Shown here: piece by piece, positions 27,310-53,532 of the stretch
Layout: each line of letters begins with the position of its first letter
Numbering within the stretch: position 1 is the stretch's first letter
Source of the DNA: an uncultured beta proteobacterium
GTDB lineage: Bacteria; Pseudomonadota; Gammaproteobacteria; Burkholderiales; SG8-39
Length of the DNA stretch: 64,000 bases
Direction: 5' to 3'
Assembly: GCA_903859155.1 (NCBI GenBank)
Contig: CAIOLO010000107.1
Location: 3,177-67,176 of the forward strand
Translations under genes and position numbers: made by a program
Notes under the pieces: model-generated
Told to the model about the DNA's origin: nothing
Database searches by the model: none
What the model saw: the letters and a program-made list of their open reading frames with translations, nothing else

Positions 27310-27333
27310 AGAGCGACTGCGCAGGGGTTCGCA

Positions 27334-28502: not shown

Positions 28503-30013
28503 CTAATACTCCAGGAACACTGGCAATAGTCGGAACCGGCGTGATGGGGCGCGGCATCGCGCAGCTTGCCGCACTGGCTGGTGAGCGCGTGCTGTTGCAC
28601 GACGCCAATCCCGGTGCGGCCTCTGCTGCGCTCGCCGGCGTCGCCGCCGACCTGGCGAAGCTGGAGGCCAAGGGAAAGCTTGCCGCCGGCCAGGCCGCGG
28701 CGGCGACGGCAAAGCTCGAAATCGCACCTGATCTGGCGGCGCTTGCAGGTTGCTGGCTGGTGGTCGAGGCGATTGTCGAGAAGCTCGAAGCGAAGCAGGC
28801 CCTGTTCACGAGCCTGGAGGGCGTGGTCGGCGACGATTGCATACTCGCCTCGAACACCTCGACCCTGGAAATCGGCGCGATCGCCGCGGCGTGCCGCCAT
28901 CCGGGGCGCGTTGCCGGATTTCACTTCTTCAATCCGGTGCCGCTGATGAAAGTGGTCGAAGTCGTGGACGGCGCGCTCACCGCTCCGTCAGTGACCGAGG
29001 CGCTTGCGGACCTCGCGCGCCGCATGGGCCACCGTCCGGTGCGTGCCAAGGATTCGCCGGGTTTCATCGTCAACCACGCCGGCCGCGGCTACGGGCCGGA
29101 GGCACTGCGCATCGTCGGCGAGGGCATCGCCTCGTTTCGTGACATCGACGCCATCCTGCGTGAGGGCGCGGGCTTTCGCATGGGGCCCTTCGAGTTGTAC
29201 GACCTGGTGGGTCTGGATATTTCGCACGCGGTCATGGACTCCATGTACCTGCAGTACTACCAGGAACCGCGCTACCGGCCCTCGCCCCTGACCGGCGCGC
29301 GGGTGCGCGCAGGGCTCATCGGACGCAAGACCGGCAACGGCTTCTTTCGTTACGAGGACGGGAAACAGGTTGCGCCGCCGCTGGCGCCCGCTTTGCCTGC
29401 TGTCGACCTGCGACGCCCCGTGTGGGTGAGCGCCCGAGGATTGGGAGGGCGTCTCAGGCCGTTGATCGAAAAGATCGGCGCAGCGCTGGAAACTTCCGCT
29501 AAACCGTCCGCTGATGCGCTTTGTCTGGTCGCGCCGCTAGGCAGCGACGCCACCACCGCTGCCCTGGCCGAAGGCCTCGATGCAGCGCGCACCCTGGCCG
29601 TCGATGCCTTGTTCCCGCTCGAACGTCGTCGCACGCTCATGACCACGCCGGTGACGCGGCCGGAACTGCGCGATGCCGCACAAGCGCTGTTGGCCTCTGA
29701 CGGCGTGCCGGTGACGGTGATCCACGATTCGCCGGGGTTCGTGACGCAACGGGTACTCGCCCACATTGTCAACGTGGCTTCGGATATCGCGCAGCAGCGC
29801 GTCGCCTCGCCCGATGACATCGACGCCGCGGTGAAGTTGGGCCTGGGCTATCCCTTGGGGCCGCTCGCCTGGGGCGATGCGCTCGGACCGGATCGCATTC
29901 TTGCCATTCTCGAGGGACTGCTCGCTTTTTACGGCGAACCGCGCTACCGCCCGAGTCCATGGCTCAAGCGGCGCGCCCTGCTTGGCGTTTCGCTGCTGAC
30001 GCCGGAGGGCTGA
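28499..30013 (+). CDS. 3-hydroxyacyl-CoA dehydrogenase (NAD-binding domain plus duplicated C-terminal domains)
   Basis: I trimmed the start to the GTG that overlaps the SDR stop. Carries the LAIVGTGVMGRGIAQ Rossmann motif, NTSTL, FHFFNPVPLMKVVEV and PGFIVN, then a second PGFVTQR-type C-terminal domain. Confidence 0.85.
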   Translation: MTNTPGTLAIVGTGVMGRGIAQLAALAGERVLLHDANPGAASAALAGVAADLAKLEAKGKLAAGQAAAATAKLEIAPDLAALAGCWLVVEAIVEKLEAKQALFTSLEGVVGDDCILASNTSTLEIGAIAAACRHPGRVAGFHFFNPVPLMKVVEVVDGALTAPSVTEALADLARRMGHRPVRAKDSPGFIVNHAGRGYGPEALRIVGEGIASFRDIDAILREGAGFRMGPFELYDLVGLDISHAVMDSMYLQYYQEPRYRPSPLTGARVRAGLIGRKTGNGFFRYEDGKQVAPPLAPALPAVDLRRPVWVSARGLGGRLRPLIEKIGAALETSAKPSADALCLVAPLGSDATTAALAEGLDAARTLAVDALFPLERRRTLMTTPVTRPELRDAAQALLASDGVPVTVIHDSPGFVTQRVLAHIVNVASDIAQQRVASPDDIDAAVKLGLGYPLGPLAWGDALGPDRILAILEGLLAFYGEPRYRPSPWLKRRALLGVSLLTPEG

Positions 30014-30039
30014 ACACCTCCGGGTGGGATTCTGCCGGG

Positions 30040-31539
30040 TCAGCGCAGCAGCTTGGAGCCGAAAAAAAGCTTGGGCAGCGCACGCACCAGATCCAGCGAT
30101 CCTTCCGCCGCAAAATCCTCCAGCCGCAGGTGTGGATTGCGGGGGCGGATGCGTTCGAAGGCGGCGCGCGCCTGCGGGTCCGCCGGCGGCGGGATGGTCG
30201 CGTCGATCATGAGCTTCGAGCCCATGCGCTGCCAGAGCAGCGTGCCGGGGGCGCCAATTTCGGGAAGGCTGGGATCCATGGCGTGATTGTGGGTGCCCGG
30301 AATGGTCACGACGTCCATTTGCGGGTTGACGCGGGCGTTGATGGCCCACAGCAGTTCCGAGTGGTTGAAAATATCCACGTCGGCGTCGACCGCGATGGCC
30401 ACTTTCGGATGCTGGTATTCCGATGAAAGCGCCGCCATCAGCAGGTTCTTCGCTTCGCCGTAGAAGCGCGGCGTCATCTGGATCACGACGCCGAAGATTC
30501 CGGGGAGCATCATCACATTGTGCAGGTTGGCTCCCCCGCCGACGTCTTTCAAGCGGCGGAAAATGGTCGCGCTCATCGGCACCTTGTGGAACACGCAGCC
30601 TTCCATCTCGGAGCCGTTCTGCAGGTTCTTGAAGATGGCATCGCGCCTGCGCGTCATGCACTGGTACTCGATGATCGGGTTCTTGCCGGTGCCGGTGACG
30701 TAGTAATCCTGGAACTCGGAGAACGGACCTTCATCCTCGCGGATATGCGGCGGGATGTGGCCTTCCAGCACGATTTCGGCGTTGGCGGGCACCTCGAGGT
30801 CGACGGTCTCGCACTTGACCAGAGGCACCGGCGCGCCGAGGAAGCCACCGGCAATTTCGAATTCGTCGTCGCCATACGCGGCGGTCGTCCCGGCCGCGAC
30901 GTAGTACAGCGGATGATGCCCGATCATGATGGCAACCGGCATGGGCTCGTTGCGCTCCTGGTACTTCAGGTAGTTCTTCCAGGAGTGCCTCGGGTAGAGC
31001 AGGATGCCCGATTTGTTCGGACCCTTGATCTGCAGGCGGTGAAAGCTGAAGTTGCGCTTGCCGGTATCCGGATCCTTGGTGACCATGAGCCCGGAACCGA
31101 TCACCGGGCCGCCATCGCGTTGCCCGGCGATATGCACCGGGAGCTGGGTGAGATCGAACTCGCCACGCTTGAACTTCAAATCCTTTACCGGGCCGCTGTC
31201 GACCATCACCGGCGCGATGCGCTGCCCCAGTTTCGCGGCCACGTGCGGTATCAGTTCCTCCTCGGATACGCCGAACGCGACCGCCGCCTGCCGCACATTG
31301 GCCGGGGCCTGGCCGAGTGAGCGCCAGCCATGGGGCAGATTCTCGAAAAACAGCGCCTTGTCGCGGCATTGGTAGAGCAATGCCCCCATCTCGGTGAGCG
31401 GATCGACCGGCTTGTCGACGCGGATCAGCTCTTTGGCGGCGTCGAGTTCGGCGATCCAGCTGCGCAGATCGCGCTCGCTTGCGCGAGGACCGTCCATCGA
31501 CGCCTTGTCTTTCTGCTTGCGCTCCTGTGTGCTCGACAT
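30040..31539 (-). CDS. UbiD-family (prFMN-dependent) aromatic (de)carboxylase paralog 1
   Basis: 499 aa. N-terminus DLRSWIAELDAAKELIRVDKPVDP, with mid-protein EDEGPFSEFQDYY (EGPFxE loop) and a C-terminal region typical of the UbiD fold. Confidence 0.8.
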   Translation of the reverse strand: MSSTQERKQKDKASMDGPRASERDLRSWIAELDAAKELIRVDKPVDPLTEMGALLYQCRDKALFFENLPHGWRSLGQAPANVRQAAVAFGVSEEELIPHVAAKLGQRIAPVMVDSGPVKDLKFKRGEFDLTQLPVHIAGQRDGGPVIGSGLMVTKDPDTGKRNFSFHRLQIKGPNKSGILLYPRHSWKNYLKYQERNEPMPVAIMIGHHPLYYVAAGTTAAYGDDEFEIAGGFLGAPVPLVKCETVDLEVPANAEIVLEGHIPPHIREDEGPFSEFQDYYVTGTGKNPIIEYQCMTRRRDAIFKNLQNGSEMEGCVFHKVPMSATIFRRLKDVGGGANLHNVMMLPGIFGVVIQMTPRFYGEAKNLLMAALSSEYQHPKVAIAVDADVDIFNHSELLWAINARVNPQMDVVTIPGTHNHAMDPSLPEIGAPGTLLWQRMGSKLMIDATIPPPADPQARAAFERIRPRNPHLRLEDFAAEGSLDLVRALPKLFFGSKLLR

Positions 31540-31600
31540 ATCTCCTCCTCCATGCTCCGGCGTTCACATAAAGTTGACCCGCTTTTCCCGACCCAAGTGG

Positions 31601-33178
31601 CTATGCTTCTCCGGGCTGTTTTCCCGGCTCGAATCCGCCGACTTCGTGGTACAGGACCTTGTTATCGGCTTCATAGGCGCGCACTGTCGGCACTTGTCCG
31701 GGCAGTCCGAGTTCTTGCCAGCGGCTCGCCACCTGGTCGTAGATGGATTTGCGCAGCGTGGTGCGCTTGGAAAATACCGGCAGATGACGGTGTTCCTTGC
31801 ATGCGTTGATCAGCGCCTTGGATCCATAGGGCCGCTTTTCGGGCGGGTTCTGTGTCGGGTCGAGCCAGGTGCTCCAGGTGTTGCGCAGGATATCGATGTC
31901 GTCGGTCGGGTTGCAGCGGCTTGCCATTGCCCAGATGACCTGGTCCATGTCGGTCGGATCGATGTCCTCGTCGACCGCGATGATCCATTTGGTGTAATAC
32001 GCACCTCCCGGCCCCTGCGCGGCCAGGGCGAGTGCCTGGGCCGCATGGCCCGCGTAGCGCTGCTCCAGGCTGATGACCGTCATGCCGAAGCCGCCCGCCG
32101 CAGCTGGATGGGAATACACGCCGGCGATGCCGGGAATGCCCAGCTTGTCCAGGTCGTCCCAGATCTTGGCCGAACGGATCACCGAGAAGAATCCGCTTTG
32201 TTCGCACGAGGGGTAGTCCGCCATCAGTGCGTTGGTGAGTATCGGCCGGGAGCGGTAGTGAACCGCGGTGACATTCACCAGCGGGCAGCCGGCTTCCGGG
32301 CGGCCGTAGTAGCCGGGAAACTCGCCGAAGGGGCCTTCCGACCTGACCGAGTTCGGATGGATCACGCCTTCGATCACCAGTTCCGCATTGGCGGGCAACA
32401 GCAGGTCGGTGGTCTTTCCGCGTACCACGGGAATGGGCTGGCCCTTGATGCCGCCGGCGAATTCGTATTCCGAGACATTCTTCGGGAAGGTCTGCGAACC
32501 GACCATCATGAACAGAGGGTCAATGCCCCAGGCGGCCGCGACCTCGATTGATTTTCCCTGTTGCCAGGCACGCGTGATGTGCAGGCGCGCGTCCTTGCCG
32601 GGCGATAGATAAAGCCCGCTCTCGGCCTTGCCCTGCTGCATCATGCGATAGGTGCCCAGGTTGATGTAGCCCGAGTCCGGGTCGCGCGTGATGACGATGT
32701 CGCCGGTGCCCGCATAGCGACCGCCGTCGAGGGGCCAGTGGCGCGGAATCGGCAGCAGGTCCAGGTCGATCTGCGAACCGAGCAGGCTGTTCTCGAACAC
32801 CGGGGCCTGTGCGGCCTGCACTTCGCGCGGCACGATGCGCTGCTTGAGTTTTTCCTTGCAGCGGCGGATCAGTTCGACTGTCGGCGTATCCGCGGGTTCC
32901 TCGAGCGTGAGGGCTATGCGCTTGATGCTCGGCCCGAGGATGTTCCACAGAGAGCGTGCGCCGATCGGGCTTTTTTCAAAGCCGGCAATATTATCGAACA
33001 GGACTGCGGGCGACGGATTCTGCTTGGCCATCAGATAGGAGATCGCGCTCATTTCCTCGTCGCGGTCGACCGATTTGTTGACCTGCACCAGTTCGCCGAT
33101 TTTTTCGACGCGATCAAGCCATTCGCGCAGATCCTGCACCGGCGCCTTGTTCAGCGCGCTATCCACAATCTTGTTCAT
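31601..33178 (-). CDS. UbiD-family (prFMN-dependent) aromatic (de)carboxylase paralog 2
   Basis: 525 aa. Carries DLREWLDRVEKIGELVQVNKSVD and the SEGPFGEFPGYYG loop. It is co-oriented with paralog 1, 61 nt upstream of it. Confidence 0.8.
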   Translation of the reverse strand: MNKIVDSALNKAPVQDLREWLDRVEKIGELVQVNKSVDRDEEMSAISYLMAKQNPSPAVLFDNIAGFEKSPIGARSLWNILGPSIKRIALTLEEPADTPTVELIRRCKEKLKQRIVPREVQAAQAPVFENSLLGSQIDLDLLPIPRHWPLDGGRYAGTGDIVITRDPDSGYINLGTYRMMQQGKAESGLYLSPGKDARLHITRAWQQGKSIEVAAAWGIDPLFMMVGSQTFPKNVSEYEFAGGIKGQPIPVVRGKTTDLLLPANAELVIEGVIHPNSVRSEGPFGEFPGYYGRPEAGCPLVNVTAVHYRSRPILTNALMADYPSCEQSGFFSVIRSAKIWDDLDKLGIPGIAGVYSHPAAAGGFGMTVISLEQRYAGHAAQALALAAQGPGGAYYTKWIIAVDEDIDPTDMDQVIWAMASRCNPTDDIDILRNTWSTWLDPTQNPPEKRPYGSKALINACKEHRHLPVFSKRTTLRKSIYDQVASRWQELGLPGQVPTVRAYEADNKVLYHEVGGFEPGKQPGEA

Positions 33179-33305
33179 TGCTGCTCCTTCGGTTGTTGCG
33201 GCCGACCAGGGCCGCCGTTGTCATTGATTAGTCAGGCAATCCATCAGACATTTCTGTCCATCGTCTCATTCGAACCGGTCGGTTTCCATGATCCAGCGCA
33301 AGCTT

Positions 33306-35690
33306 TCATTGCATAGCCCCGGCTTCGCGGAATTGTTCGAATTCCTCCCGGCTCAAGCCCAGGAACTCGCTGAATACCCGCTCGTTGCCCCCGCCGAGCA
33401 GCGGGGCGGCTGAAAGCACGTCCCCGGGCGTCGCCGCAAGTTCGAAGGCCGGCATGCAGTATCTCTGCTCGCCGATGACCGGGTGATGTTGGCTGCGCCA
33501 CTGGCGCCTGGTCGCGAGTTGCGGGTCGACGAACAGGTCAGCCATCGAACTGACGGCATGGGCCGGAACCTGCGCGCGCTGCAATATTTCGGCACCCGCT
33601 TGCGCACCGATGCCGATAGTCCAGGCGGCAATTGCGGCGTCGATTGTGTTTTGACTGGATTTTCTGCCGGCGAGCGTTGCAAGGCACGCCTGCGCGGCGA
33701 GTTCCGGGCTGCCGATCGCCGTGCAGAGTCGCGCCAACTGCGCCTCCGACCAACAGGACAGGGCCAGCCAGTTGCCGTCGCTGCATTGATAGACGCCGTG
33801 TGGCGATGCGCCAGGGTCCTCATTATTGTTGCGGCCGGCTACCGTGCCGGACCGGTGGTAGTCGAGGAATGCACCGGCGAGGAACATCAGTCCCGATTCG
33901 TATTGCGAGACATCCAGGTACGCACCTTTGCCGGTTACGCGGCGGCGTTCGAGCGCGGCCAGCACCGCTGCTGCACCCATGGTCGAGGCAATGAAATCCA
34001 CGTAAGGGCCGTAGAGCAGCATGGGGGAACCGCCGGGACTTCCGGTGAGCCCGCACATGCCCACCAGCGCGGTGAGTTGCGAGCCGAAACCAGGGGTGTC
34101 CGCGCGCGGACCGGTCTGGCCCATATTGCAGGTGGAAAGCATGACCAGCGCGGGATTTTCTTTGCTGAGTGATTCATACCCCAGACCCAGCCGGTCGATC
34201 ACCCCGGGGCGCATGTTTTCGATGACGACATCGCTCCACAAGGCCAGACGCCGCGCCAGTTCTCGTCCGGCAGGGGTTTTCAGCTCAATCGTCACGCCAT
34301 ATTTTGAGTCGTTGAAATAGGCAAAGCACGCCCCGTTGTCGATGCCTGGCTTGCCACCCCGGTAGGGCGGATACTGAAGTCGAAAACCATCGGGTCGCGA
34401 GCGCGACTCGACGTGAACCGTGACGGCGCCGAAATTTGCCAGCATTTTTCCGATATGCGGTCCCGCGGCGTAGCTGCCGAATTCGACAATCTTCAATCCG
34501 TCGAGCGCGAATGGCGGTGTGGACGAAGGCGTTCGCTTCGCTGCATCCGATCCGGCATTGTCGCGTGCAACACGCCGCTGCCCGGACCACGGCCCTTTCT
34601 GCGCGCCAATCGAAGGGCGCTTGCCATCGACGATCACGAAGCACCCGCAATGGCGTTCGCTCGCGCCGCCGGGTACCGCGAGGTCCTGCCAGAAGTCACG
34701 CGCGGCCAGTTGTGGATCGGTGGCGTTGTCCGCGACGCTGGACACCGGATAGCCGAGCATCTCGCGCCGGTGTGTTTCTTCGAGGAAATCGCGCTTGGTG
34801 AGCTGGGCGAAAAAAGCCGCAATCGGCGCCTCGATGGCATCGATCTCGGCCTGCGCGCGGATCATGGGGTCCCAATTCCCGCAATCGATGGCGGCAAGCG
34901 CACCGAGCGGCGCGCCTGCGCTGCGCATCCACGCAAGCAACTGCTCCACAGTACGCCGGCCGGCCGGACCGCCGTAAAGGATGAAATTTACGTAACCGTC
35001 CCGGCACGGCCAGAATACGCGGAAGCGCGCGCGCGTCACCGACCGGCCTGTCATGAACGCCCCGGCACGGATGGGCGAGACGCCGTCGATATCGACGAAA
35101 GTGGGCGCGTGCGCGAGCGCCACAATCACCGCAGCCTGCGCCGAGACATCGACGAGTTGGCCGCAGCCGCTGCGCGCGCGCTCAGCCAGTGCCGTGAGCG
35201 CGCCCACCGCGGCCTGCGAACCGGCCCAGGGATACGACTGTGGAACGGAAATGCGCAGTGGCTCACCGTCCGGTTCGCCTGCGAGGGACATCGCGCCTCC
35301 GGCGGCCATGATCTCGAGGTCGGTGGCAAGCCAGTCGGATTTCGGACCCGCAAGGCCGAAGGGTGTAATGGCAACCAGGATAAGACGCGGATTGATTGCG
35401 GCAAGCCGGCCGTAGTCGAAAAGTGATGCTTCCACACTGCCGGGCCTGAAGGTGGCCAGCAGGATGTCGGCGCCCGCGGCGAGGCGGTTGAATTCCTCCA
35501 GGCTCGATGGCGCGTGCACATCCAGCCGCTGCAGGCGCTTGTTGATGTTGAGCGCCCGCCAGTCCGAACCATCCAAGCCGGTCTCGGGTGATTCGAGCTT
35601 CAGGACATCGGCGCCCAGATCCGCAAGCAGGCGGCCGGCCAGCCAGCCCAGCCGGTCAGTGCAATCCAGTACCGCGCAGCCATTGAGCAT
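33306..35690 (-). CDS. tandem-fused family III CoA-transferase (two CaiB/BaiF-type modules in one polypeptide)
   Basis: 794 aa. Module 1 begins VLDCTDRLGWLAGRLLADLGADVLKLESP and module 2 begins IVEFGSYAAGPHIGKMLANFGAVTVHVES. Each ends in a ..G(Q/A)(L/Y)(V/L)DVS segment. A Ser/Pro/Arg-rich linker lies between the modules. Confidence 0.85.
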   Translation of the reverse strand: MLNGCAVLDCTDRLGWLAGRLLADLGADVLKLESPETGLDGSDWRALNINKRLQRLDVHAPSSLEEFNRLAAGADILLATFRPGSVEASLFDYGRLAAINPRLILVAITPFGLAGPKSDWLATDLEIMAAGGAMSLAGEPDGEPLRISVPQSYPWAGSQAAVGALTALAERARSGCGQLVDVSAQAAVIVALAHAPTFVDIDGVSPIRAGAFMTGRSVTRARFRVFWPCRDGYVNFILYGGPAGRRTVEQLLAWMRSAGAPLGALAAIDCGNWDPMIRAQAEIDAIEAPIAAFFAQLTKRDFLEETHRREMLGYPVSSVADNATDPQLAARDFWQDLAVPGGASERHCGCFVIVDGKRPSIGAQKGPWSGQRRVARDNAGSDAAKRTPSSTPPFALDGLKIVEFGSYAAGPHIGKMLANFGAVTVHVESRSRPDGFRLQYPPYRGGKPGIDNGACFAYFNDSKYGVTIELKTPAGRELARRLALWSDVVIENMRPGVIDRLGLGYESLSKENPALVMLSTCNMGQTGPRADTPGFGSQLTALVGMCGLTGSPGGSPMLLYGPYVDFIASTMGAAAVLAALERRRVTGKGAYLDVSQYESGLMFLAGAFLDYHRSGTVAGRNNNEDPGASPHGVYQCSDGNWLALSCWSEAQLARLCTAIGSPELAAQACLATLAGRKSSQNTIDAAIAAWTIGIGAQAGAEILQRAQVPAHAVSSMADLFVDPQLATRRQWRSQHHPVIGEQRYCMPAFELAATPGDVLSAAPLLGGGNERVFSEFLGLSREEFEQFREAGAMQ

Positions 35691-35726
35691 GGTTTGCGTC
35701 CCGACCGGCCCTGGGCGCTTTGCCGC

Positions 35727-37298
35727 CTAACGCCCGGTGCGGGCGAGCGAGATAACCCAGCCTGCCATGCGCGCCTTCATCTTGTCGATGTCCTTGGCGT
35801 TGAAAAACGCCTCGGGCTTGACGCGGTCCACCGGATAGACGGGGCGGTGGAAATCGTTCTCGTAGCCGAAGGGCACCGTCGCATCGATGCCCATGCCGCC
35901 TTCGAACATGGTGTTGGAGGCCGTCCACTGCTTGTCCCCCGAGGTCATGCGCTCGGCCGGCATGAAGGTCTGGCCGCGGCCGCCGGGGATCGGGTTGAGG
36001 ATGTCCGATCGCGGATTCACGCGCGTCGTCAGGCACCACATGATGTCGTCCATGGAGTAGATGTCGACATCCATGCTGACGGCGATTGCCAGGCGCATGC
36101 CCTGCGAACAGGAGAGTATGGCCGAGAGGAAATTGCGCTGCCAGCCTTCTTCGATCTGGTTGCGCTTTTTCACCTGGATGATGCATCCGCCCCAGTCGGT
36201 CATGCAATAGGGGATGTGGACGTTCTGGATGATGCCCGGCTGCAGTCGCTCGCACAGGGCGTAGATGGCCGATTCGCGCACCGAGGTGTCGATGTTGGAA
36301 TCGTCCATGGTGTGCACGCCCAGCGGAAAGATGATCGGCTTGGTCTCTTTCTTGCGCATGGTGATGGCGGTGACGTGGAAGGTCGGCGCCTTGTAGGCCT
36401 TGCCCATGTATCCGGCCCACTCGGGATGGAAGTGGAAGCGGCCCTGCACGTCGGCCTTTTCCGACTCGGCGGTTTCATAGCGCTTGTCGCGCGGGTGCAG
36501 GTAGCCCTCCAGCACGTATTCGGCGTCGGCCAGCGTATAGGCATCGATGGTGCGGCATTTCACCAGCCGTACAGGGGAGTTCTGGATCGCGCCGGCAATG
36601 CCGATCTCGTCACAGCCTTTGGGCAGGATGGCGTAATCGAATCCCGAACCCGCCACGAAGGTGCACGAAGGCGGCACGCCGAAACACATGGTGAGCGGAA
36701 TCGGCTGCTCGTCCTTGTAGTGCTCGGTCATCACCTGCCACATGTGCGAGCCGGGCGAGATCTGGAATGTGCCGACATTGCCCCAGCGGAAATTCATGCG
36801 GTTGTAGCCGATGTGGCTGCCGCCGTCGAAATAGGGCCCGACCACGCAGGAAATTCCGGAGCCGATGGTCAGCTCGGATTCCAGGTGTGTATGGCGGATC
36901 GCGGTGATCCACTTGTTGACGTCCAGGTCATCGGTTATGACCAGTTCCTGTACCGGCGCCTCCTCCTGGGAGATGGTCACCGGTTTGATGGGGCGTTCGA
37001 TCGCGCGCGCGACCTTCTTCACGCGATCCAGCGAATTTTCCCATCCGAACATTTTCTCGATGATACGGATGTCGCCGAACAGGTTGGTGATGGCACGCGC
37101 GTAGGGCTTGCCCTTCACCTTGTTGAACAGCATCGGAAGACTGCCGTCGAAGTGTTTCTGCAGACCGGTGATTTCGAGGTCGGGATCGACTTCCTTGTCG
37201 GTTTCGACCAGCAGGCCTTCGGCCCGGAGCCAGTCCACTGCTTTGGGAAGGCTGCTGACATCGGGTCTTGCTGCAGCAGTTTTGGCGGGTTCGTTCAT
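35727..37298 (-). CDS. divergent UbiD-family (de)carboxylase paralog 3
   Basis: 523 aa. The overall UbiD architecture is present (AVDWLRAEGLLVETDKEVDP, C-terminal TTRVNPRSD). The canonical EGPFGE loop, however, reads QGRFHFHPEWAGYMG. Confidence 0.7.
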   Translation of the reverse strand: MNEPAKTAAARPDVSSLPKAVDWLRAEGLLVETDKEVDPDLEITGLQKHFDGSLPMLFNKVKGKPYARAITNLFGDIRIIEKMFGWENSLDRVKKVARAIERPIKPVTISQEEAPVQELVITDDLDVNKWITAIRHTHLESELTIGSGISCVVGPYFDGGSHIGYNRMNFRWGNVGTFQISPGSHMWQVMTEHYKDEQPIPLTMCFGVPPSCTFVAGSGFDYAILPKGCDEIGIAGAIQNSPVRLVKCRTIDAYTLADAEYVLEGYLHPRDKRYETAESEKADVQGRFHFHPEWAGYMGKAYKAPTFHVTAITMRKKETKPIIFPLGVHTMDDSNIDTSVRESAIYALCERLQPGIIQNVHIPYCMTDWGGCIIQVKKRNQIEEGWQRNFLSAILSCSQGMRLAIAVSMDVDIYSMDDIMWCLTTRVNPRSDILNPIPGGRGQTFMPAERMTSGDKQWTASNTMFEGGMGIDATVPFGYENDFHRPVYPVDRVKPEAFFNAKDIDKMKARMAGWVISLARTGR

Positions 37299-37338
37299 GG
37301 CCTTTCCTTTCGGGATTGAACAGCGGTTTGTGAATGCC

Positions 37339-38157
37339 TCATGGCTGATGCATGTTTCTTACGGCTTTTTCAGACAAGGCAATTTCCTCGCGCAGGACCG
37401 AGACGATCTCGCTCCTGCGGGTTTCGGTCATCCGGCTGATGATGGCCCCGACGGTGATCGAGGCGAAGGGGTGTCCGTAGCGGTTGATGATGGGCAGGCC
37501 CAGCGTGGCCGCACCGTCGGCAAGGTGGGCGTCGTTCCAGGCGTAGCGCAGGGCGCGCGAATGCTCCAGCGCTTCGAGCAGTGCCGGCACAGTGAGGTTG
37601 TAGTAGCCGACCAGGCGGGTCGCATTGGCACGCACGATTTCCTGGATCGCCTCGTCGGGCAGGGGCATCAACATGGCGATTCCGCTCGCACCCGCACCCA
37701 GCGGGCGGCGCTCGCCCACGTCCAGCGTGAAGGTCTTGATCGGGAACGAGCCTTCCTTGCGGTCGATGCAGACCGAATCGTGGCCGCTGCGCACCGACAG
37801 GAATACCGTGTCGCCGGTCTTCTCGGCCAGGCGCTGCAACGAGGGGCGGCAGATATCGCAAAGGTTGAATTGCGGTGCGGCGGCCAGGCCCAGCTCGAAC
37901 ACCAGCGGCCCGAGGCAGTACAGGCGCGAATCCGCGTCCTGGGTGAGCAGGCCCTCGGCGATCAGTCCTTTGAGGATGCGGTGCGCCGTGGGCCGTTGCA
38001 GGCCGGAGAATTTCACCACGTCGGTGAGTCGCATGCCGGGGCGATTGCGCGAGGCCACCAGGCGCACGATCGCTGCGGCGCGATGCAGAGTCTGCGTGCC
38101 GCCCGGGTGACTCCGGCTTGGTTTGGCCGGTTTTACTCTGCTGCTGGTGGCGTTCAT
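37339..38157 (-). CDS. IclR family transcriptional regulator
   Basis: 272 aa. The HTH is LHRAAAIVRLVAS..MRLTDVVKFSGLQRPTAHRILKGLIAEGLL, followed by an IclR effector domain. It is divergent from UbiD paralog 4. Confidence 0.85.
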   Translation of the reverse strand: MNATSSRVKPAKPSRSHPGGTQTLHRAAAIVRLVASRNRPGMRLTDVVKFSGLQRPTAHRILKGLIAEGLLTQDADSRLYCLGPLVFELGLAAAPQFNLCDICRPSLQRLAEKTGDTVFLSVRSGHDSVCIDRKEGSFPIKTFTLDVGERRPLGAGASGIAMLMPLPDEAIQEIVRANATRLVGYYNLTVPALLEALEHSRALRYAWNDAHLADGAATLGLPIINRYGHPFASITVGAIISRMTETRRSEIVSVLREEIALSEKAVRNMHQP

Positions 38158-38407
38158 TACCCAATTAGTTCCACTATATGGAAGGCTTTTTGTGCCCTCT
38201 TATGAACCATCGTTCAGTGGTAATGCTAGCATGTATTCGAACTAAATGGGTCTGATTTGTCGGCGTGTGGCAGCCTTTTTTAAATTTTCATTCTGCTATA
38301 ACTCGACCATTTAGTCCATATTGCGGAAGTTTTCCCGGGTGGCTGCTGGCTTGCCCGGGCGCATCGGATCGGCGCACAGGTCCGCTTGAGTCGACTAGGA
38401 GAATTCT
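38158..38407. promoter_or_regulatory. divergent iclR / ubiD-4 promoter region with two palindromes
   Basis: An AT-rich stretch. TTCCACTATATGGAA lies at about 38169-38183 and TGAACCATCGTTCA at about 38203-38216. AGGAG sits 8 nt before the 38408 ATG. Confidence 0.45.
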
Positions 38408-39940
38408 ATGAGCGCGATCGTACGGCTCCCCGACGGTATGGGCAGTCCCATGGGTAACGTGGCCGGCGCAGCAGTACCGGCAAGCAAGGACGTCAGCTAT
38501 AACATCCCCTACGAAGACCTGCGCGGCTGGATCGCGCAAGCCGAAAAACTCGGCGAAGTCCGCCATGTCAAGGGAGCCACCTGGCAGGAGGAAATGGGCA
38601 TGGCTGCCGAGCTGGTGCAGCACGACGAAAAGGCGCCCTGCGTACTTTTCGAAGACGTGCCCGGATGCCGCAAAGGTGATCGCCTGCTGACCAATTTCTT
38701 CGGCGGCCGGCGGCAGAACATGACACTCGGGTTTCCCCTGGATTTCACCAAGCTCCAGCTCTCGGAGGCCTTCCTCGAATGCTACATGCGTGATCTGAAG
38801 CCCATCCCCCATCAGTACGTCGAAACGGGGCCGGTGATGGAGAACGTGATCACCGGCGACGCCATCGACATCACCAAATTTCCCGTGCCCAAGTGGCACG
38901 AGGGTGATGGCGGACGCTACGTCGGAACCGGCAGCTACAACATCACCATCGATCCCGAGGAAAACTGGATCAACGTGGGCACCTACCGGGTAATGATCCA
39001 TGACAAGAACACGGTCGGGTTCTACATGTCCCCGGGCAAGCACGGGCGCATCCACCGCGACAAGTACGAGGCGCGCAACGAACCGATGCCCGTGGTGGTC
39101 GTGATCGGCGGCGATCCGCTGCAGTTCCTGGTTGCGTGCAGCGAGATGCCCTACGGTGTTTGTGAACTGGACATCGCCGGCGGTCTGCGCGGCAAGGCGG
39201 TTAAAGTTGTGAAAGGCCCGGTCACCGGCCTGCCGATTCCCGCAAATGCGGAGATGGTGCTGGAGGGATTCGTGCAACCCCACAAGCGCAAGCTGGAGGG
39301 GCCTTTTGGCGAATGGACCGGTTACTACGCCAGCGACGTGCGCGAGGAGCCGGTGCTGGACATCAAGGCGATCTACCACCGCAACGACCCGATCATCCTC
39401 GGCTGCCCGCCGCAACGGCCGCCCGAGGAACAGGCGCGCTACCGCGCCGTCACCCGCTCCGCGCTGATCCGCAAGAACGTGCTGCAGGCAGGCGTACCCG
39501 ATATCACCGCGGTATGGGCCCATGAAGTGGGCGGTTCACGCCTGCTGCTGGGGGTCTCCATCAAGCAGCGTTATGCCGGCCACTCCAAACAGGCCGGACA
39601 TGTTGCCGCGATGTGCCACGCGGGCGCCTACGCGGGCAAGTACGTGATCGTGGTCGACGATGACATCGATGTGAGCAATCTGGAGGATCTCATGTGGGCG
39701 ATGTGCACCCGTTCCGATCCCGCGACCTCCATTGACATCATCCACGGCACCTGGAGCACCCCGCTCGATCCGCGCATCCCGCCCGAGGAGAAGGCAAAGG
39801 GCAACAACACCAATTCGCGCGCCATCATCGACGCCTGCCGTCCGTACCACTGGCGCGACAAATTTCCCAAGGTCAACATGCCCAGTCCCGAGCTGGCGCG
39901 CCGCACCATGGAGAAATTCGGTTATCTGCTGAAGCCGTAA
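38408..39940 (+). CDS. UbiD-family (prFMN-dependent) aromatic (de)carboxylase paralog 4
   Basis: 510 aa. Carries DLRGWIAQAEKLGEVRHVKG and the LEGPFGEWTGYYA loop, with a good RBS. Confidence 0.8.
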   Translation: MSAIVRLPDGMGSPMGNVAGAAVPASKDVSYNIPYEDLRGWIAQAEKLGEVRHVKGATWQEEMGMAAELVQHDEKAPCVLFEDVPGCRKGDRLLTNFFGGRRQNMTLGFPLDFTKLQLSEAFLECYMRDLKPIPHQYVETGPVMENVITGDAIDITKFPVPKWHEGDGGRYVGTGSYNITIDPEENWINVGTYRVMIHDKNTVGFYMSPGKHGRIHRDKYEARNEPMPVVVVIGGDPLQFLVACSEMPYGVCELDIAGGLRGKAVKVVKGPVTGLPIPANAEMVLEGFVQPHKRKLEGPFGEWTGYYASDVREEPVLDIKAIYHRNDPIILGCPPQRPPEEQARYRAVTRSALIRKNVLQAGVPDITAVWAHEVGGSRLLLGVSIKQRYAGHSKQAGHVAAMCHAGAYAGKYVIVVDDDIDVSNLEDLMWAMCTRSDPATSIDIIHGTWSTPLDPRIPPEEKAKGNNTNSRAIIDACRPYHWRDKFPKVNMPSPELARRTMEKFGYLLKP

Positions 39941-39955
39941 GCCGGACGCTGAGCG

Positions 39956-39999
39956 AAGAGAGAGGGCTCCGGGCAAGAGCCCTTCTCTGCATTTTCTTT
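39956..39999 (+). terminator. rho-independent terminator candidate after ubiD-4
   Basis: A GC-rich imperfect stem (AGAGAGGGCTC / GAGCCCTTCTCT) around the loop CGGGCAA is followed by GCATTTTCTTT. Confidence 0.55.
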
Positions 40000-40060
40000 G
40001 ACGTTCCTTGGTCGCTTGCGAGTCAAGGGTTGACATGCGAAGAGACGGGTTTGTATGCGT

Positions 40061-40108
40061 CCCGTCATTTTGTAAAGTTGCGACTTCGCAACTTTACAAA
40101 ATGACGGG
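40061..40108. repeat. 48-nt perfect palindrome between convergent genes
   Basis: CCCGTCATTTTGTAAAGTTGCGA-CT-TCGCAACTTTACAAAATGACGGG. The arms are 23 nt and perfectly complementary, and are AT-rich relative to the flanks. Confidence 0.8.
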
Positions 40109-40149
40109 AAAAGTGGACGCCAAGGCAAAGCACGCTGTTTGGTTCCTGC

Positions 40150-40923
40150 TCAGGTTTGCCAGGACTTGTACTTCGCGGCCAGTTTTTCGGTTTCGCGTGC
40201 GAGGATGGTCACATCCGATCCCACCGTGATGAACTGCGCCCCCAGGTCGACATAATGGCGGGCGCGCGCTTCGTCGTTGGTCAATATGCCCGGCGCCTTG
40301 CCGCATCGGCGGATGGTGACGATGCCCTCGTCGAGCACCTTCTGCACCTCCGGGTGGTTCATGTTGCCCATGTGCCCCATGTCGGTTGACAGGTCCCCGG
40401 GGCCGAGGAACACGCCATCCACGCCCTCGACACGGGTGATTTTCTCGAGGTTCTGTATGCCCAGACGCGTCTCCACCTGCACCAGCACGCAGATTTCGCC
40501 GGCGGCCTTTTTGGCGTAGTCCTTGATGCGCATGAAACGCGAGGCGCGGGTCGGGCCGCCGGATCCGCGCACGCCCTCAGGCGCATAGCGCGTGTAAGCC
40601 ACCGCATTCCTTGCCTCCTCTTCGGTCTGGATCATGGGGATCAGGAGCGTCTGCGCGCCCGCGTCGAGCACGCGCTTGATCGTCACCATGTCGTTCCAGG
40701 GAACGCGCACCACCGGCTGGGTATGGTTTTCCATGGTTGCGTGCAGCAGCCGCACCATCATGAACATGTCGATCGGCGCGTGTTCGGTATCGATGATCAG
40801 CCAGTCGAGGCCCGCTCCGGCCACCACCTCCATGGCGTATTCGCTGCACAGATTGCACCACACGCCCGCCTGCAGCTGGCCGGATTTCAGGGCGTGCTTG
40901 AAATGATTGACGGGCAGTTCCAT
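40150..40923 (-). CDS. HpcH/HpaI family 2-keto-3-deoxy-acid aldolase
   Basis: 257 aa. Carries LDWLIIDTEHAPID, VRVPWND and QTLLIPMIQTEEEA, the class II HpcH/HpaI aldolase pattern. Confidence 0.85.
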   Translation of the reverse strand: MELPVNHFKHALKSGQLQAGVWCNLCSEYAMEVVAGAGLDWLIIDTEHAPIDMFMMVRLLHATMENHTQPVVRVPWNDMVTIKRVLDAGAQTLLIPMIQTEEEARNAVAYTRYAPEGVRGSGGPTRASRFMRIKDYAKKAAGEICVLVQVETRLGIQNLEKITRVEGVDGVFLGPGDLSTDMGHMGNMNHPEVQKVLDEGIVTIRRCGKAPGILTNDEARARHYVDLGAQFITVGSDVTILARETEKLAAKYKSWQT

Positions 40924-41010: not shown

Positions 41011-41877
41011 CTATTTTTCGTCCCTGATCGGGTTGCGAAGCACGCCGACCTTCTCGATGTCGATTTCGCAGACGTCGCCGTCTTTCATGAAAATTGGCGG
41101 CTTGCGCGCCCAACCCACTCCGGACGGTGTGCCCATCACCAGCAGGTCGCCCGGTTCCAGGGTCAGGCATTCGGTGGCCAGTTCCACCGTCTCATCCACC
41201 GGGAACAGCATGTCGCTGGTGTTGGCATCCTGCAGCACCTGGCCGTTGAGCAGGCAGCGGATCTTCAGACCGGTGCCGCCAGGGGGCAGTTCATCGGGGG
41301 TCACCATCCAGGGGCCGAAACCGCCGGTGGCATCGAAATTCTTGCCGATGGTCCATTGCGCGGTTTTGCGCTGATAGTCGCGGATGGAGCCGTCATTGAA
41401 GCAGGTGTAGCCCGCGATGTATTTCAGCGCATCGGCTTTTTTCACGTGACGAGCTTTTTTGCCGACAATGGCGCACAACTCGGCTTCGTAATCGAATTTG
41501 TCCGAAACCTTGGGGCGGATCATCGCCTCGCCATGGGCTGCGAACGATGTCGTGCAGCGCATGAAAAAGCTCGGGTAGGTCGGCTTCTGGTGTCCGCCCT
41601 CGGCGGCGTGATCGGCGTAGTTGAGCCCCAGGCAGATGATCTTCCCGGGACGCGGAATCGGCACCAGGTACTTCAGCCCGGCGAGCGGGTGCTTGTGCTC
41701 CGCTTTGGCGGACGCGGCGGCCTTTTTTGCGGCGGCCATGCCGGTATCGCCCAAGTTGATCAAAGCGAGCAGGTCGCTTGGCAGGTCCGGGGCGGCCAGT
41801 TTGAGATCGACGACCGTATCGCCCTCGACGATACCCAGACGTGCCGTTCCCTGATGTTCAAAGCTGACAATTTTCAT
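41011..41877 (-). CDS. fumarylacetoacetate hydrolase (FAH) family hydratase/decarboxylase/isomerase
   Basis: 288 aa. The C-terminal FAH domain shows KIICLGLNYADHA, DYEAELCAIVGK and GDLLVMGTPSGVG. Confidence 0.85.
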   Translation of the reverse strand: MKIVSFEHQGTARLGIVEGDTVVDLKLAAPDLPSDLLALINLGDTGMAAAKKAAASAKAEHKHPLAGLKYLVPIPRPGKIICLGLNYADHAAEGGHQKPTYPSFFMRCTTSFAAHGEAMIRPKVSDKFDYEAELCAIVGKKARHVKKADALKYIAGYTCFNDGSIRDYQRKTAQWTIGKNFDATGGFGPWMVTPDELPPGGTGLKIRCLLNGQVLQDANTSDMLFPVDETVELATECLTLEPGDLLVMGTPSGVGWARKPPIFMKDGDVCEIDIEKVGVLRNPIRDEK

Positions 41878-42008
41878 GGTTTGGAAATTTCTCTTAGGAG
41901 GTTGAGATGGATGGGGCTGTTCAGGCAGGGCGGCATTCTACCGTTCCTGTATCGGGGCGGGTTCAGCCGTTATCCGGCAGGGTGCGGGGGCCCAAAGCCG
42001 CGCGCCGG

Positions 42009-42986: not shown

Positions 42987-43210
42987 TGCTTTGGTCTCCG
43001 TTGCTGGGTGCGGTCAGGGGCATTCTCTCATGACCTCGCGCAATCGGTCGGACTGCGCCCGGTGCCCGATCGGCGCACTCAAGGCATCGAGGGCGAGCCG
43101 CAGGACGGGGCGAATTCCCGGACCATGGCGGCGAATATGGCTTTAGAATTGGCCTCGCGGAACATAAAACCTGGCAACGCCCAATCGTTGGCGTGAACCT
43201 GCGGGAGAAC

Positions 43211-43549: not shown

Positions 43550-43773
43550 TTTGAACAAGGTGGCCTTCGCCCCCTCGTAATTCCCCCGAGTCAGAGGGAA
43601 ACGCTGATTGGGTGAACGCTGGATATGATCGAACCTGGAGGCCTTGACCTCGGGTATATCCCCCAAATCAGGGGTAACACGATGGGCCAATTTTCTTGGA
43701 TTGACACTTGTTGAGTGTTTCCCTGGCATTTCCGGCACACGTTCCAGAGGCCCTGCCCTCGGAGGAGATAAAC

Positions 43774-53509: not shown

Positions 53510-53532
53510 CAGTGCCGCAAATGTTCCCTCGG

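Follow-up and report, generated by a model that had tools for sequence, protein, structure and literature searches.

The locus appears to be an o-phthalate catabolic unit beside an anaerobic benzoyl-CoA pathway, with three extra prFMN decarboxylases for other aromatic acids, a reading to which we assign a probability of about 80%. All six ORFs noted earlier are present at their reported positions in the window, that is, the whole 64 kb stretch of DNA analysed, and their reading frames are intact (Table 1). The sequence-only reading had placed four UbiD-family genes in positions 30040-39940; these coordinates are exact, and all four proteins (U1 to U4) match Pfam UbiD_N, UbiD and UbiD_C well above the cut-offs, with E-values of 4e-34 to 2e-69 for the UbiD domain. 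As had also been noted, three of the paralogs carry an EGPF(G/S)E loop: in the alignment of the four it reads EGPFSE in U1 and EGPFGE in U2 and U4, and the catalytic loop of U3 has the expanded form E...GRFHFHPE. The catalytic Arg and both Glu residues are invariant across U1 to U4; PMC5818171 gives a Glu-Arg-Glu/Asp network as the catalytic signature of the family. U1, U2 and U4 are mutually distant (25-38% pairwise identity), and their sequences mark them as separate prFMN decarboxylases, predicted to be catalytically intact, each from a widespread subfamily of its own.

Table 1. Features of the locus, with positions in the window.
Feature	Position	Strand	Basis or location
Benzoyl-CoA pathway genes	17039-30013		Pfam tables and 100% tblastn mapping
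U1, UbiD family, 499 aa	30040-31539	-	Pfam UbiD_N/UbiD/UbiD_C
U2, UbiD family, 525 aa	31601-33178	-	Pfam UbiD_N/UbiD/UbiD_C
[quoted passage not shown]
U3, phthaloyl-CoA decarboxylase (PCD) ortholog, 523 aa	35727-37298	-	Match to PDB 8PMK/8OZ5
IclR-family transcriptional regulator, 272 aa	37339-38157	-	Pfam HTH_IclR and IclR_C
Perfect palindrome TTCCACTATATGGAA, candidate IclR operator	38169-38183		iclR/U4 divergent intergenic region
U4, UbiD family, 510 aa	38408-39940	+	Pfam; PhdA 7PDA; recurrent pcd/spt neighbour

U3 matches the PCD structures of Thauera chlorobenzoica (8PMK/8OZ5) with 1086 bits and 449 of 516 residues identical (87%), and is 88.5% identical to both PCD copies on plasmid 2 of Aromatoleum aromaticum EbN1. 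Like EbN1 PCD, it also carries PCD-specific insertions around its catalytic loop; U1, U2 and U4 lack them. The transferase does belong to family III, as first described, but it is not a single ordinary enzyme, because Pfam finds two complete CoA_transf_3 domains in the one protein. Each half has a 61% identical counterpart in EbN1, RS22145 for residues 1-366 and RS22140 for residues 395-794; the protein is an in-frame fusion of both EbN1-type subunits, in the same order, with a linker of about 28 aa. Its nearest solved structure is the heteromeric succinyl-CoA:(R)-benzylsuccinate CoA-transferase (9FN0), likewise of family III, in which chain A corresponds to the N-terminal half and chain B to the C-terminal half; that enzyme acts on a toluene-pathway substrate and consists of separate polypeptides, whereas the subunits here are covalently fused. 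Fused as well as split transferases are found among related loci.

Since U3 is an 87-88.5% ortholog of PCD and each half of the transferase is orthologous to an EbN1 subunit (61%), we identify iclR-pcd-spt, by orthology, as the known module that converts o-phthalate, from which plasticisers are built, to benzoyl-CoA, here with a fused transferase and without UbiX. Some 35 genome loci, drawn from Beta- and Alphaproteobacteria, Binatia, Geobacter and Acidobacteriota MAGs, keep the pcd-transferase pair. [quoted passage not shown] The original proposal of a module that activates aromatic dicarboxylates with CoA and decarboxylates them is close to certain, by orthology, for U3 and the transferase; its extension to the other paralogs is improbable.

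The proposed neighbouring pathway is borne out by Pfam, which recognises a class I benzoyl-CoA reductase cluster: two BcrAD_BadFG and two HGD-D matches, ferredoxin, two enoyl-CoA hydratases, a 3-hydroxyacyl-CoA dehydrogenase, an SDR and both subunits of a 2-oxoacid:ferredoxin oxidoreductase. The Pfam tables for this region come from an identical metagenome contig and were placed on the window by 100% tblastn matches. Rubrerythrin and RidA genes also lie within 17039-30013, and the ferredoxin gene stands just to the left of this interval.

The best comparison is with the Rhodocyclaceae denitrifiers (EbN1 plasmid 2, T. chlorobenzoica 3CB-1 and Azoarcus sp. PA01), whose module consists of ubiX, pcd, two CoA-transferase genes and a transporter. 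Besides the decarboxylase, the two systems have in common the gene order (pcd, then transferase), the delivery of benzoyl-CoA to benzoyl-CoA reductase, an IclR regulator (61% identical to that of the EbN1 phthalate island on plasmid 2) and a nearby ortholog of U4, which in EbN1 is RS22170 (72%), located between the two PCD copies. Unlike the Rhodocyclaceae module, the locus lacks idi and PNPOx-like genes, has four TctC binding-protein genes nearby in place of a TRAP or ABC transporter, and carries two additional UbiD genes, U2 and U1, after the transferase. It is also chromosomally embedded and shows no compositional anomaly, whereas the EbN1 genes form an IS-flanked island on a plasmid. The claim that there are more UbiD paralogs here than in described systems is only partly true, because the EbN1 plasmid already has two PCD copies and a U4 ortholog. 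The core module is already known, and the unexplained extra UbiD genes are a moderately interesting addition to it.

U4 is a recurrent neighbour of pcd. Orthologs with 60-92% identity occur in 9 of 22 well-covered loci in the unbiased, transferase-centred set and in 12 of 25 well-covered pcd loci overall, and in eight loci the gene immediately after the transferase is U4. It adjoins U1 orthologs in four loci (in one of them the genes overlap) and is near U2 orthologs in three; TctC is its commonest neighbour family (14 loci), and UbiX accompanies it in most loci. By a rough count, about three-quarters of the well-covered U4 loci lack pcd, and some U4 homologs elsewhere adjoin a divergent aryl-CoA-ligase-like gene and UbiX. 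The nearest solved homolog of both U4 (369 bits) and U2 (261 bits) is PhdA (7PDA), a prFMN-dependent phenazine-1-carboxylate decarboxylase from Mycobacterium fortuitum (PMC10850782). In contrast to PhdA, U2 and U4 are proteobacterial and occur in phthalate or aromatic-acid catabolic settings without phenazine genes; since their mutual identity is just 37.5%, at most one of them could share the specificity of PhdA. From its distribution and similarity, U4 is best described as a frequent accessory of pcd/spt operons that represents an uncharacterised, PhdA-like subfamily.

U1 and U2 behave differently from U4: neither was found in any of the 25 other well-covered pcd loci, and the U2-U1 pair is an addition to the o-phthalate cluster seen only in this lineage. 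Moreover, pcd-spt and U2-U1 are split by a toxin-antitoxin/AAA insertion in one close relative, which argues that the pair may work independently of the phthalate genes. By similarity, U2 belongs to a second uncharacterised and widely spread subfamily, its best 120 database clusters being 82-100% identical; its settings elsewhere are IclR-U2-UbiX, or IclR-U2-LigAB with a Rieske dioxygenase. U1 likewise falls in an uncharacterised, widespread subfamily (best 120 clusters 79-99% identical, mostly of 488 aa), which is HmfF-like: the 2,5-furandicarboxylate decarboxylase HmfF (6H6V/6H6X) is its best solved homolog (230 bits to 6H6V) and has the same UbiD fold and catalytic loop. The similarity is moderate, however, and the locus has no other hmf genes (HmfG/UbiX, HmfH). 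U1 occurs elsewhere with Amidohydro_2, AMP-ligases and TctC, and in a Mo-hydroxylase operon with translational coupling; these settings suggest Mo-hydroxylase and Amidohydro_2 pathways instead of furan catabolism. Four of the five other U1/U2 contexts that we read have no adjacent CoA-activating enzyme, and one U1 context has the AMP-ligases. Homologs of U1 are automatically annotated by JGI as '2,5-furandicarboxylate decarboxylase 1'. The start codon of U1 may lie some 11-14 codons further downstream.

These observations bear on whether the extra enzymes are related to phthalate at all. U1, U2 and U4 might each decarboxylate unrelated (hetero)aromatic acids (for instance pyridine or furan dicarboxylates, or hydroxybenzoates), independently of phthalate, and have accumulated in a catabolic island by chance. 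The absence of U1 and U2 from other pcd loci, the mobile-looking insertion in the relative, the alternative partners of U1 (the Mo hydroxylase) and U2 (LigAB and the Rieske dioxygenase), and the lack of pcd at most U4 loci all fit such chance juxtaposition. Against it, 41-48% of pcd loci, spread over several phyla, have U4, often within the operon, a share far above expectation for an unrelated gene; U4 itself recurs beside U1 and U2, and all the genes here lie within 10 kb in what is seemingly one IclR-controlled region. We consider mere juxtaposition a tentative alternative, and rather unlikely. In the o-phthalate reading that we prefer, genomic context suggests that the most likely substrates of U1, U2 and U4 are other (hetero)aromatic carboxylates, for example polycarboxylated, hydroxylated or N-heterocyclic acids related to phthalate, which would be imported via the many neighbouring TctC-type binding proteins. 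If this is true, the three enzymes broaden the range of acids channelled into central aromatic pathways.

Another interpretation, which follows the sequence-only reading and which we judge improbable, is that the transferase activates ortho-, iso- and terephthalate or substituted phthalates and that the four UbiD proteins are isomer-specific decarboxylases of the CoA esters, all yielding benzoyl-CoA. The position of U4 directly downstream of transferase genes in at least eight loci and the ortholog amid the EbN1 phthalate genes would agree with this, and since anaerobic terephthalate degradation still has no known pathway (PMC13040137), there is a gap to fill. The occurrence of U4 elsewhere beside an aryl-CoA-ligase-like gene and UbiX also recalls Syntrophorhabdus aromaticivorans, in which isophthalate-CoA ligase, a UbiD-like isophthaloyl-CoA decarboxylase and a UbiX-like protein form an isophthalate module (PMC9516798). 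Compared by description only, that module follows the same logic as the locus, CoA activation and then UbiD-family decarboxylation to benzoyl-CoA, but activation is by an ATP-dependent ligase rather than a CoA-transferase. However, the characterised succinyl-CoA:phthalate transferases are o-phthalate-specific, and neither iso- nor terephthalate supports growth of EbN1, which has an ortholog of U4 (PMC13040137). The PCD-specific insertions are absent from the three extra paralogs, whose solved homologs (HmfF, PhdA) act on free acids, and the distribution of U1 and U2, outside other pcd loci and mostly without a CoA-activating neighbour, also speaks against isomer-specific roles.

UbiD-family PCD requires prFMN. 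The reported lack of UbiX in the 64 kb holds up: a UbiX-like query from a related locus, itself verified as Pfam Flavoprotein (161 bits), gave a best tblastn match to the six frames of E = 0.55, and PF02441 is missing from the Pfam tables, which extend over most of the window and about 6 kb past its left end. A cluster without UbiX is atypical, because UbiX is present at 23 of 25 well-covered related loci and, according to a 2026 review, in all known anaerobic o-phthalate clusters (PMC13040137). Given its absence from the locus, prFMN for all four UbiD enzymes would most simply be supplied by a UbiX whose gene lies at another place in the genome. Genes for idi and a small PNPOx-like flavoprotein recur at related loci, so cofactor-supply genes do cluster with pcd. 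This recurrence, like that of U4 itself, might suggest that the extra UbiD proteins, U4 especially, mature, store or deliver prFMN for PCD and possibly offset the missing UbiX. We find this very improbable: U4 occurs together with UbiX at most loci and therefore does not replace it, it keeps the full catalytic Glu-Arg-Glu network, most of its loci have no pcd, and UbiD proteins lack the prenyltransferase fold.

The two identities named beforehand as refuting the proposal find no support: none of the four paralogs reaches the NCBIfam cut-off for ubiquinone UbiD or for the alpha or beta subunit of phenylphosphate carboxylase, and U1, U2 and U4 stay below the curated cut-offs of all named UbiD enzymes. 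The phenylphosphate carboxylase beta model gives U2 its second-best and U4 its best NCBIfam score (250 and 291 bits; curated cut-offs 469 and 565), and beyond the UbiD proteins no candidates for phenylphosphate carboxylase or phenylphosphate synthase were recognised among the scanned genes, which cover most of the window. U1 and U2 are neighbours with the same orientation, but the suggestion that they form a hetero-oligomer is unlikely, and it is scarcely credible that U1 with U2 (or U2 with U4) makes a hetero-oligomeric enzyme resembling the phenylphosphate carboxylase alpha/beta core and carboxylating a phenolic or unsubstituted arene, because each family normally occurs alone and both partners have the complete catalytic triad, quite apart from beta-model scores far under the cut-offs and the lack of other such candidates.

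The IclR gene heads what looks like a minus-strand unit, with U4 diverging from it, and homologs of the regulator (54-65% identity) adjoin ubiX-pcd in six related loci. It probably governs iclR-pcd-spt, perhaps with U2 and U1, as well as U4. Gaps between the minus-strand genes are 36-127 bp, and the terminator scan found no terminator-like sites in them; because promoter and terminator scans of the locus performed no better than on shuffled sequence, we speak of the operon structure only as apparent. Within the window, TTCCA-N5-TGGAA is matched exactly only by the palindrome TTCCACTATATGGAA; with one mismatch allowed there are 6 matches against 1.6 expected, and the location of the palindrome makes it a candidate operator for IclR.

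All six open reading frames that the sequence-only reading had placed in this cluster were recovered exactly where it had put them. Four of them encode the UbiD-family proteins U1 to U4, and the UbiD architecture ascribed to them was borne out, with Pfam UbiD_N, UbiD and UbiD_C matched far over threshold in each. The loop that had been pointed out reads EGPFSE in U1 and EGPFGE in both U2 and U4, with an expanded version in U3, and the regulator matches Pfam HTH_IclR and IclR_C. The remaining gene does belong to the family III CoA-transferases, as had been said, and carries two complete CoA_transf_3 domains, a feature that went unmentioned.

Genes of the UbiD cluster, with coordinates in the window
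Gene	Coordinates	Strand	Product length
U1	30040-31539	-	499 aa
U2	31601-33178	-	525 aa
CoA-transferase	33306-35690	-	794 aa
U3	35727-37298	-	523 aa
IclR	37339-38157	-	272 aa
U4	38408-39940	+	510 aa

Phthaloyl-CoA decarboxylase (PCD, gene pcd) decarboxylates phthaloyl-CoA, giving benzoyl-CoA, in a reaction that depends on prFMN, K+ and Fe2+. U3 matches the PDB entries 8PMK/8OZ5, 'Phthaloyl-CoA decarboxylase', with 1086 bits, and is identical to 8PMK at 449 of 516 positions (87%). In Aromatoleum aromaticum EbN1, the plasmid 2 proteins RS22150 and RS22190 are each 88.5% identical to U3 by BLASTP. U3 has the three-domain Pfam architecture of the family; in the alignment, the catalytic columns R168, E270 and E275 are invariant, and U3 has the PCD-specific loop insertions in common with the EbN1 enzyme. 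In the literature, the characterised PCD is that of Thauera chlorobenzoica (PMC13040137), and the very labile phthaloyl-CoA is known to be converted to benzoyl-CoA by a UbiD-like, prFMN-dependent PCD (PMC13040137; PMC9516798; PMC8269228). Because U1, U2 and U4 reach only 62-96 bits against PCD, they are not PCDs. The generic model TIGR00148 (cut-off 244.85 bits) is passed by U1 (264.8), U2 (279.7) and U4 (289.7); U3 passes all three Pfam domain models but, with 107 bits, falls short of the TIGR00148 threshold, as one would expect of a lineage as divergent as PCD.

The pcd gene lies 36 bp upstream of the transferase gene. The two CoA_transf_3 stretches of the transferase differ from one another and are orthologous to two EbN1 subunits: by BLASTP, RS22145 matches residues 1-366 and RS22140 matches residues 395-794, with 61% identity in each case, and this EbN1 pair is called phthalate transferase on the basis of the literature. 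The 794-aa protein thus joins the two subunits head to tail in a single chain. Its closest solved structure is the heteromeric benzylsuccinate CoA-transferase, in which chain A resembles the N-terminal half and chain B the C-terminal half. By orthology to the EbN1 pair, the fused protein is predicted to move CoA from succinyl-CoA to o-phthalate. Roughly a dozen loci have a single transferase reading frame of about 790 aa, and in about 10 others, as in EbN1, the transferase is split into two genes of about 400 aa each that overlap by 4 bp. Both forms occur among relatives, and the fusion is thus a recurrent natural variant. A single-chain transferase may suit pathway engineering.

In a tblastn comparison with plasmids, one record matched, plasmid 2 of EbN1. 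The gene order there is IclR, UbiX, UbiD (RS22190), ABC transporter, UbiD (RS22170), porin and DMT, followed by UbiX, UbiD (RS22150), two CoA transferases, IS5 and a TRAP transporter, with an idi gene close to the island. BLASTP identity to the window's proteins is 61% for the EbN1 IclR and 72% for RS22170, the counterpart of U4. We found no TRAP or ABC phthalate transporter of the EbN1 type in the window.

Pfam tables of the neighboring genes agree with the earlier statement that a benzoyl-CoA pathway adjoins the cluster. To the left, convergent with U1, are genes for a 3-hydroxyacyl-CoA dehydrogenase, an SDR, RidA, rubrerythrin, the two subunits of a 2-oxoacid:ferredoxin oxidoreductase and two members of the enoyl-CoA hydratase family, and beyond these lie the four subunits of a benzoyl-CoA reductase of the class I type (two HGD-D and two BcrAD_BadFG) with a ferredoxin. 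Since a benzoyl-CoA reductase adjoins the module, the assignment of o-phthalate to benzoyl-CoA is straightforward. Judged by these orthologies, iclR, pcd and the fused transferase would make up a bona fide phthalate module. The proposal that the cluster activates and decarboxylates aromatic acids to yield benzoyl-CoA accordingly stands at its core, through the orthology of U3 and of both transferase halves, and loses its novelty in that the pathway was already known. What is new here is the architecture, namely a fused transferase, no UbiX and three extra UbiD subfamilies, together with the recurrence of U4 as a partner. Phthalates are made in bulk as building blocks of plasticisers and polyesters, and to our knowledge the CoA-transferase/PCD route is the only one characterised for anoxic o-phthalate degradation in denitrifiers.

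Farther left, the window contains an Rrf2 regulator, a xanthine-dehydrogenase-family enzyme and another aryl-CoA-ligase-like gene. At 12186-15290 (+) lies a gene for a 1034-aa fusion of an Old-Yellow-Enzyme domain (Oxidored_FMN) with an AMP-binding aryl-CoA-ligase module, next to the three-subunit xanthine-dehydrogenase-family enzyme, which is 4-hydroxybenzoyl-CoA-reductase-like (approximately 8260-12108); such a ligase-reductase fusion is unusual in an anaerobic aromatic cluster. To the right of the UbiD cluster are an HpcH/HpaI aldolase, a fumarylacetoacetate-hydrolase (FAH) family gene and, in a row or close together at 42009-46839, four genes for TctC-type binding proteins; the membrane components TctA and TctB were not found among the window genes scanned. 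GC content between 30 and 40 kb is 0.61-0.65, in line with both flanks, which leaves the idea of the UbiD cluster as a foreign island unsupported. From about 46000 to 64000, GC drops from approximately 0.62 to 0.52-0.58 and the genes are of the surface-protein and polysaccharide kind: a 2024-aa RTX/cadherin-repeat protein (47435-53509), a family 2 glycosyltransferase, an epimerase, a DegT aminotransferase, a radical SAM protein and a NodZ-like protein. This stretch looks like a separate surface-structure island.

To find relatives, we scanned genomes with the fused transferase as query and obtained 47 loci, nearly all from MAGs, in Burkholderiales and other Betaproteobacteria, Alphaproteobacteria, Xanthobacteraceae, Binatia, Geobacter and Acidobacteriota. 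A PCD ortholog (61-95% identical) stands directly upstream of the transferase in about 35 of the 47. The o-phthalate route, then, is widespread among Burkholderiales, Alphaproteobacteria, Binatia and other uncultured bacteria of soil and groundwater. Of the genomes scanned, 'Betaproteobacteria bacterium RIFCSPLOWO2_02_FULL_62_17', a MAG, comes closest: its proteins are 84-95% identical and its gene order, FAH, U4, IclR, PCD and transferase, is that of the window; an 84-kb ENA metagenome scaffold is identical to the window at the protein level.

The absence of UbiX from the 64 kb, noted from the sequence alone, was confirmed. Six-frame tblastn with a UbiX-like protein of a related locus, which itself scores 161 bits against Pfam Flavoprotein, found no match in the window better than E = 0.55, and no gene in the Pfam tables scanned carries a Flavoprotein domain. 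Of the 25 loci that were well covered, meaning that pcd is flanked by 5 kb or more on each side, 23 have a UbiX-like gene of about 200 aa, which either directly precedes pcd or lies at another place in the locus. The nearest relative (L006) has no UbiX in the 3.6 kb available upstream of pcd. The UbiX-less window is a real deviation, because a 2026 review reports UbiX genes in all known anaerobic o-phthalate clusters (PMC13040137). The absence is a property of the cluster and not of the PCD enzyme, and the simplest reading is that prFMN is supplied in trans by a UbiX encoded elsewhere. The o-phthalate route can do without a dedicated UbiX in its locus.

Other small genes recur at the well-covered pcd loci. 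A PNPOx-like gene of about 165 aa is found in 13 of the 25, either just past the transferase or ahead of U4, and an idi/Nudix gene in seven (one or both occur in L011, L012, L015, L017, L022, L023, L028, L030, L084, L089, L094 and others). Both may serve to supply the prFMN cofactor, and neither is present in the window. Directly upstream of pcd, ten loci of the Alphaproteobacteria/Xanthobacteraceae type (L010, L020, L024, L033, L034, L038-L041 and L045) have a gene whose product of about 470 aa shows a weak enoyl-CoA hydratase domain; the window lacks this gene.

For the three additional UbiD proteins, pairwise identity is 31% for U1-U2, 31% for U1-U4 and 37.5% for U2-U4, and each is about 25% identical to U3, while their respective orthologs in other bacteria are 62-95% identical. 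Figures of 25-38% within the cluster against 62-95% outside it rule out recent in-situ duplication as their source; by this measure of divergence, U1, U2 and U4 are old paralogs rather than local duplicates. The Arg and both Glu residues of the Glu-Arg-Glu network, which PMC5818171 describes as the catalytic network of the UbiD family, are kept in invariant alignment columns in U1 to U4, and none of the four looks like a dead subunit. The suggestion that U1 and U2 form a hetero-oligomer did not hold up: each family usually occurs alone elsewhere, and the catalytic residues are kept in both.

We placed U1 to U4 relative to characterised UbiD enzymes by score rankings against the PDB and NCBIfam. 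None of the four reaches the curated NCBIfam cut-offs for ubiquinone UbiD, menaquinone decarboxylase, VdcC, BagN/FevL or the alpha and beta subunits of phenylphosphate carboxylase. The sequence-only reading had held that its proposal would fail if the paralogs branched with ubiquinone-biosynthetic UbiD, or with phenylphosphate carboxylase accompanied by ppcCD/pps genes just outside the window; both assignments are rejected on the cut-offs. Against the ubiquinone model NF008175 (cut-off 788 bits) they score 40-164 bits. For phenylphosphate carboxylase, the best beta scores are 291 (U4) and 250 (U2) versus 469 bits, and alpha scores are at most 183 versus 565; no other subunit of that enzyme and no phenylphosphate synthase was recognised among the window's genes. 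VdcC, the phenolic acid decarboxylase subunit C, is rejected at 167-298 bits versus the NF041204 cut-off of 650, with no adjoining UbiX-type or small partner gene. HmfF, a 2,5-furandicarboxylate decarboxylase, is the best solved homolog of U1, at only 230 bits and with no hmf gene context. For U4 (369 bits) and U2 (261 bits) the best solved homolog is 7PDA, that is PhdA, a phenazine-1-carboxylate decarboxylase (PMC10850782), which is too distant for a transfer of specificity; phenazine gene context is absent for both.

All three subfamilies are large and widely scattered. Among scored candidates, the U1 family comprises 3166 proteins with E <= 1e-30. Its best 120 clusters range from 79 to 99% in identity, and MAGs of Burkholderiales, Alphaproteobacteria and Chloroflexi are among them. 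The corresponding numbers are 5390 proteins for U2 (best 120 clusters 82-100% identical) and 7443 for U4 (68-100%). The closest database matches of U1, U2 and U4, at roughly 70-90% identity, come from MAGs of different classes or phyla.

Of the three, U4 is the habitual neighbor of pcd. In the transferase-centred set, which is unbiased for U4, 9 of the 22 well-covered loci have a U4 ortholog (60-92%), and overall a U4-type UbiD occurs in approximately 40-50% of pcd loci, often inside the operon, as well as on the EbN1 plasmid. The arrangements ubiX-pcd-transferase-(PNPOx)-U4 and pcd-transferase-U4-ubiX are found in Alphaproteobacteria/Xanthobacteraceae loci and on several metagenome contigs. 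A metagenome scan centred on U4 gave 80 loci, many of them short. In these, pcd is near U4 in seven (eight with a weak 50% match in L119), UbiX adjoins U4 in 14, and an aryl-CoA-ligase-like gene is close by in about nine; clustering of the neighbors showed TctC to be the commonest family, with 14 loci. Orthologs of U1 (78-81%) adjoin U4 in four of the 80 and orthologs of U2 (82-84%) are near it in three. Divergent IclR-U4 pairs without pcd exist too (L058). A second UbiD type in phthalate clusters goes unmentioned in the literature searched, a search that had the primary papers on the EbN1 cluster outside its scope.

U1 and U2, on the other hand, are missing from all 25 other well-covered pcd loci. 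One Geobacter MAG and one Binatia MAG have U2 at a distance of no more than 8 kb from pcd or the transferase. In a Pseudorhodoplanes MAG it forms IclR-U2-UbiX beside an NMT1-type ABC transporter, and elsewhere it is found as IclR-U2-binding protein-LigAB-hydrolase beside Rieske dioxygenase, Amidohydro_2 and TctC genes. U1 is accompanied elsewhere by Amidohydro_2, AMP-ligases and acyl-CoA dehydrogenases, and in another locus adjoins a TctC gene. In L140 (6254-11467), a U1 homolog (87%) overlaps the stop of a three-subunit molybdenum hydroxylase operon and is translationally coupled to it, with TctC and Amidohydro_2 genes on the flanks. A U1 ortholog also overlaps the start of a U4 ortholog in L060 (623-3573). 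These last two loci are leads to the substrate class, which may be hydroxylated N-heteroaromatic dicarboxylates.

Outside the window, the four-UbiD arrangement was found on only one related metagenome contig, ERZ1426853, where U2 is 93% identical. There, a 3.6-kb insertion carrying a ParE toxin, a RelB antitoxin, a 196-aa reading frame and an AAA ATPase lies between the transferase and U2-U1. This insertion shows that pcd-transferase and U2-U1 are separable, a hint that the cluster was put together from modules of that kind. The data support the view of the locus as a composite, in which a phthalate module is joined by a frequent accessory decarboxylase, U4, and by the pair U2-U1, which is specific to this lineage and stems from a pool of horizontally mobile UbiD genes. 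Genes for U1, U2 and U4 elsewhere accompany (hetero)aromatic-acid catabolism and TctC-type carboxylate-binding proteins. We infer that the three proteins decarboxylate other aromatic or N-heteroaromatic carboxylates, for example phthalate-related polycarboxylates or hydroxylated dicarboxylates.

The sequence-only reading had suggested that the paralogs might serve different phthalate isomers, and it is possible that U4 acts on another isomer. However, the characterised transferases are reported to be specific for o-phthalate, and EbN1 has a U4 ortholog yet does not grow on iso- or terephthalate (PMC13040137); the isomer hypothesis is weakened by both observations. A bolder alternative, which we consider improbable, makes U4 an overlooked third catalytic component of the phthalate module, with U1 and U2 as further members of a mobile toolkit. 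The U4 substrate would then be a second aryl-dicarboxylate or its CoA ester, with iso- or terephthaloyl-CoA, a substituted phthaloyl-CoA, or a benzene-tricarboxylate that yields phthalate as candidates, and the toolkit of U1 and U2 would be aimed at benzene or pyridine polycarboxylates. Should U4 or a partner act on tere- or isophthalate derivatives, anaerobic terephthalate degradation outside syntrophic consortia would become genetically accessible for the first time. The locus also points to three large UbiD subfamilies, with U4 a habitual neighbor of pcd that is present even in a model strain open to genetic work. Biocatalysts for reversible (de)carboxylation are sought among the UbiD enzymes; assigning the U1, U2 and U4 families would add new reactions and might show how bacteria degrade other aromatic polycarboxylates.

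On the minus strand, the gaps from iclR to U1 are 40, 36, 127 and 61 bp. A consensus scan of 29800-40300 for promoters and terminators returned one site resembling a promoter and 10 resembling terminators, numbers that shuffled sequence also reaches, and is uninformative about operon limits; with that scan, itself no better than shuffles, no minus-strand terminator was found in the gaps. A search for inverted repeats in the three intergenic regions gave nothing useful, the arms of the candidate operator being only 5 nt long. By eye we spotted, and by pattern search confirmed, a perfect TTCCA-N5-TGGAA palindrome, TTCCACTATATGGAA, at 38169-38183 in the divergent iclR/U4 region (38158-38407). It lies 12 bp upstream of iclR and is the only exact copy in the window. 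A copy with one mismatch, at 41872-41886, overlaps the start of the FAA-hydrolase gene at 41877. The palindrome is a possible IclR operator, which would link the hydrolase/aldolase pair to the same regulon.
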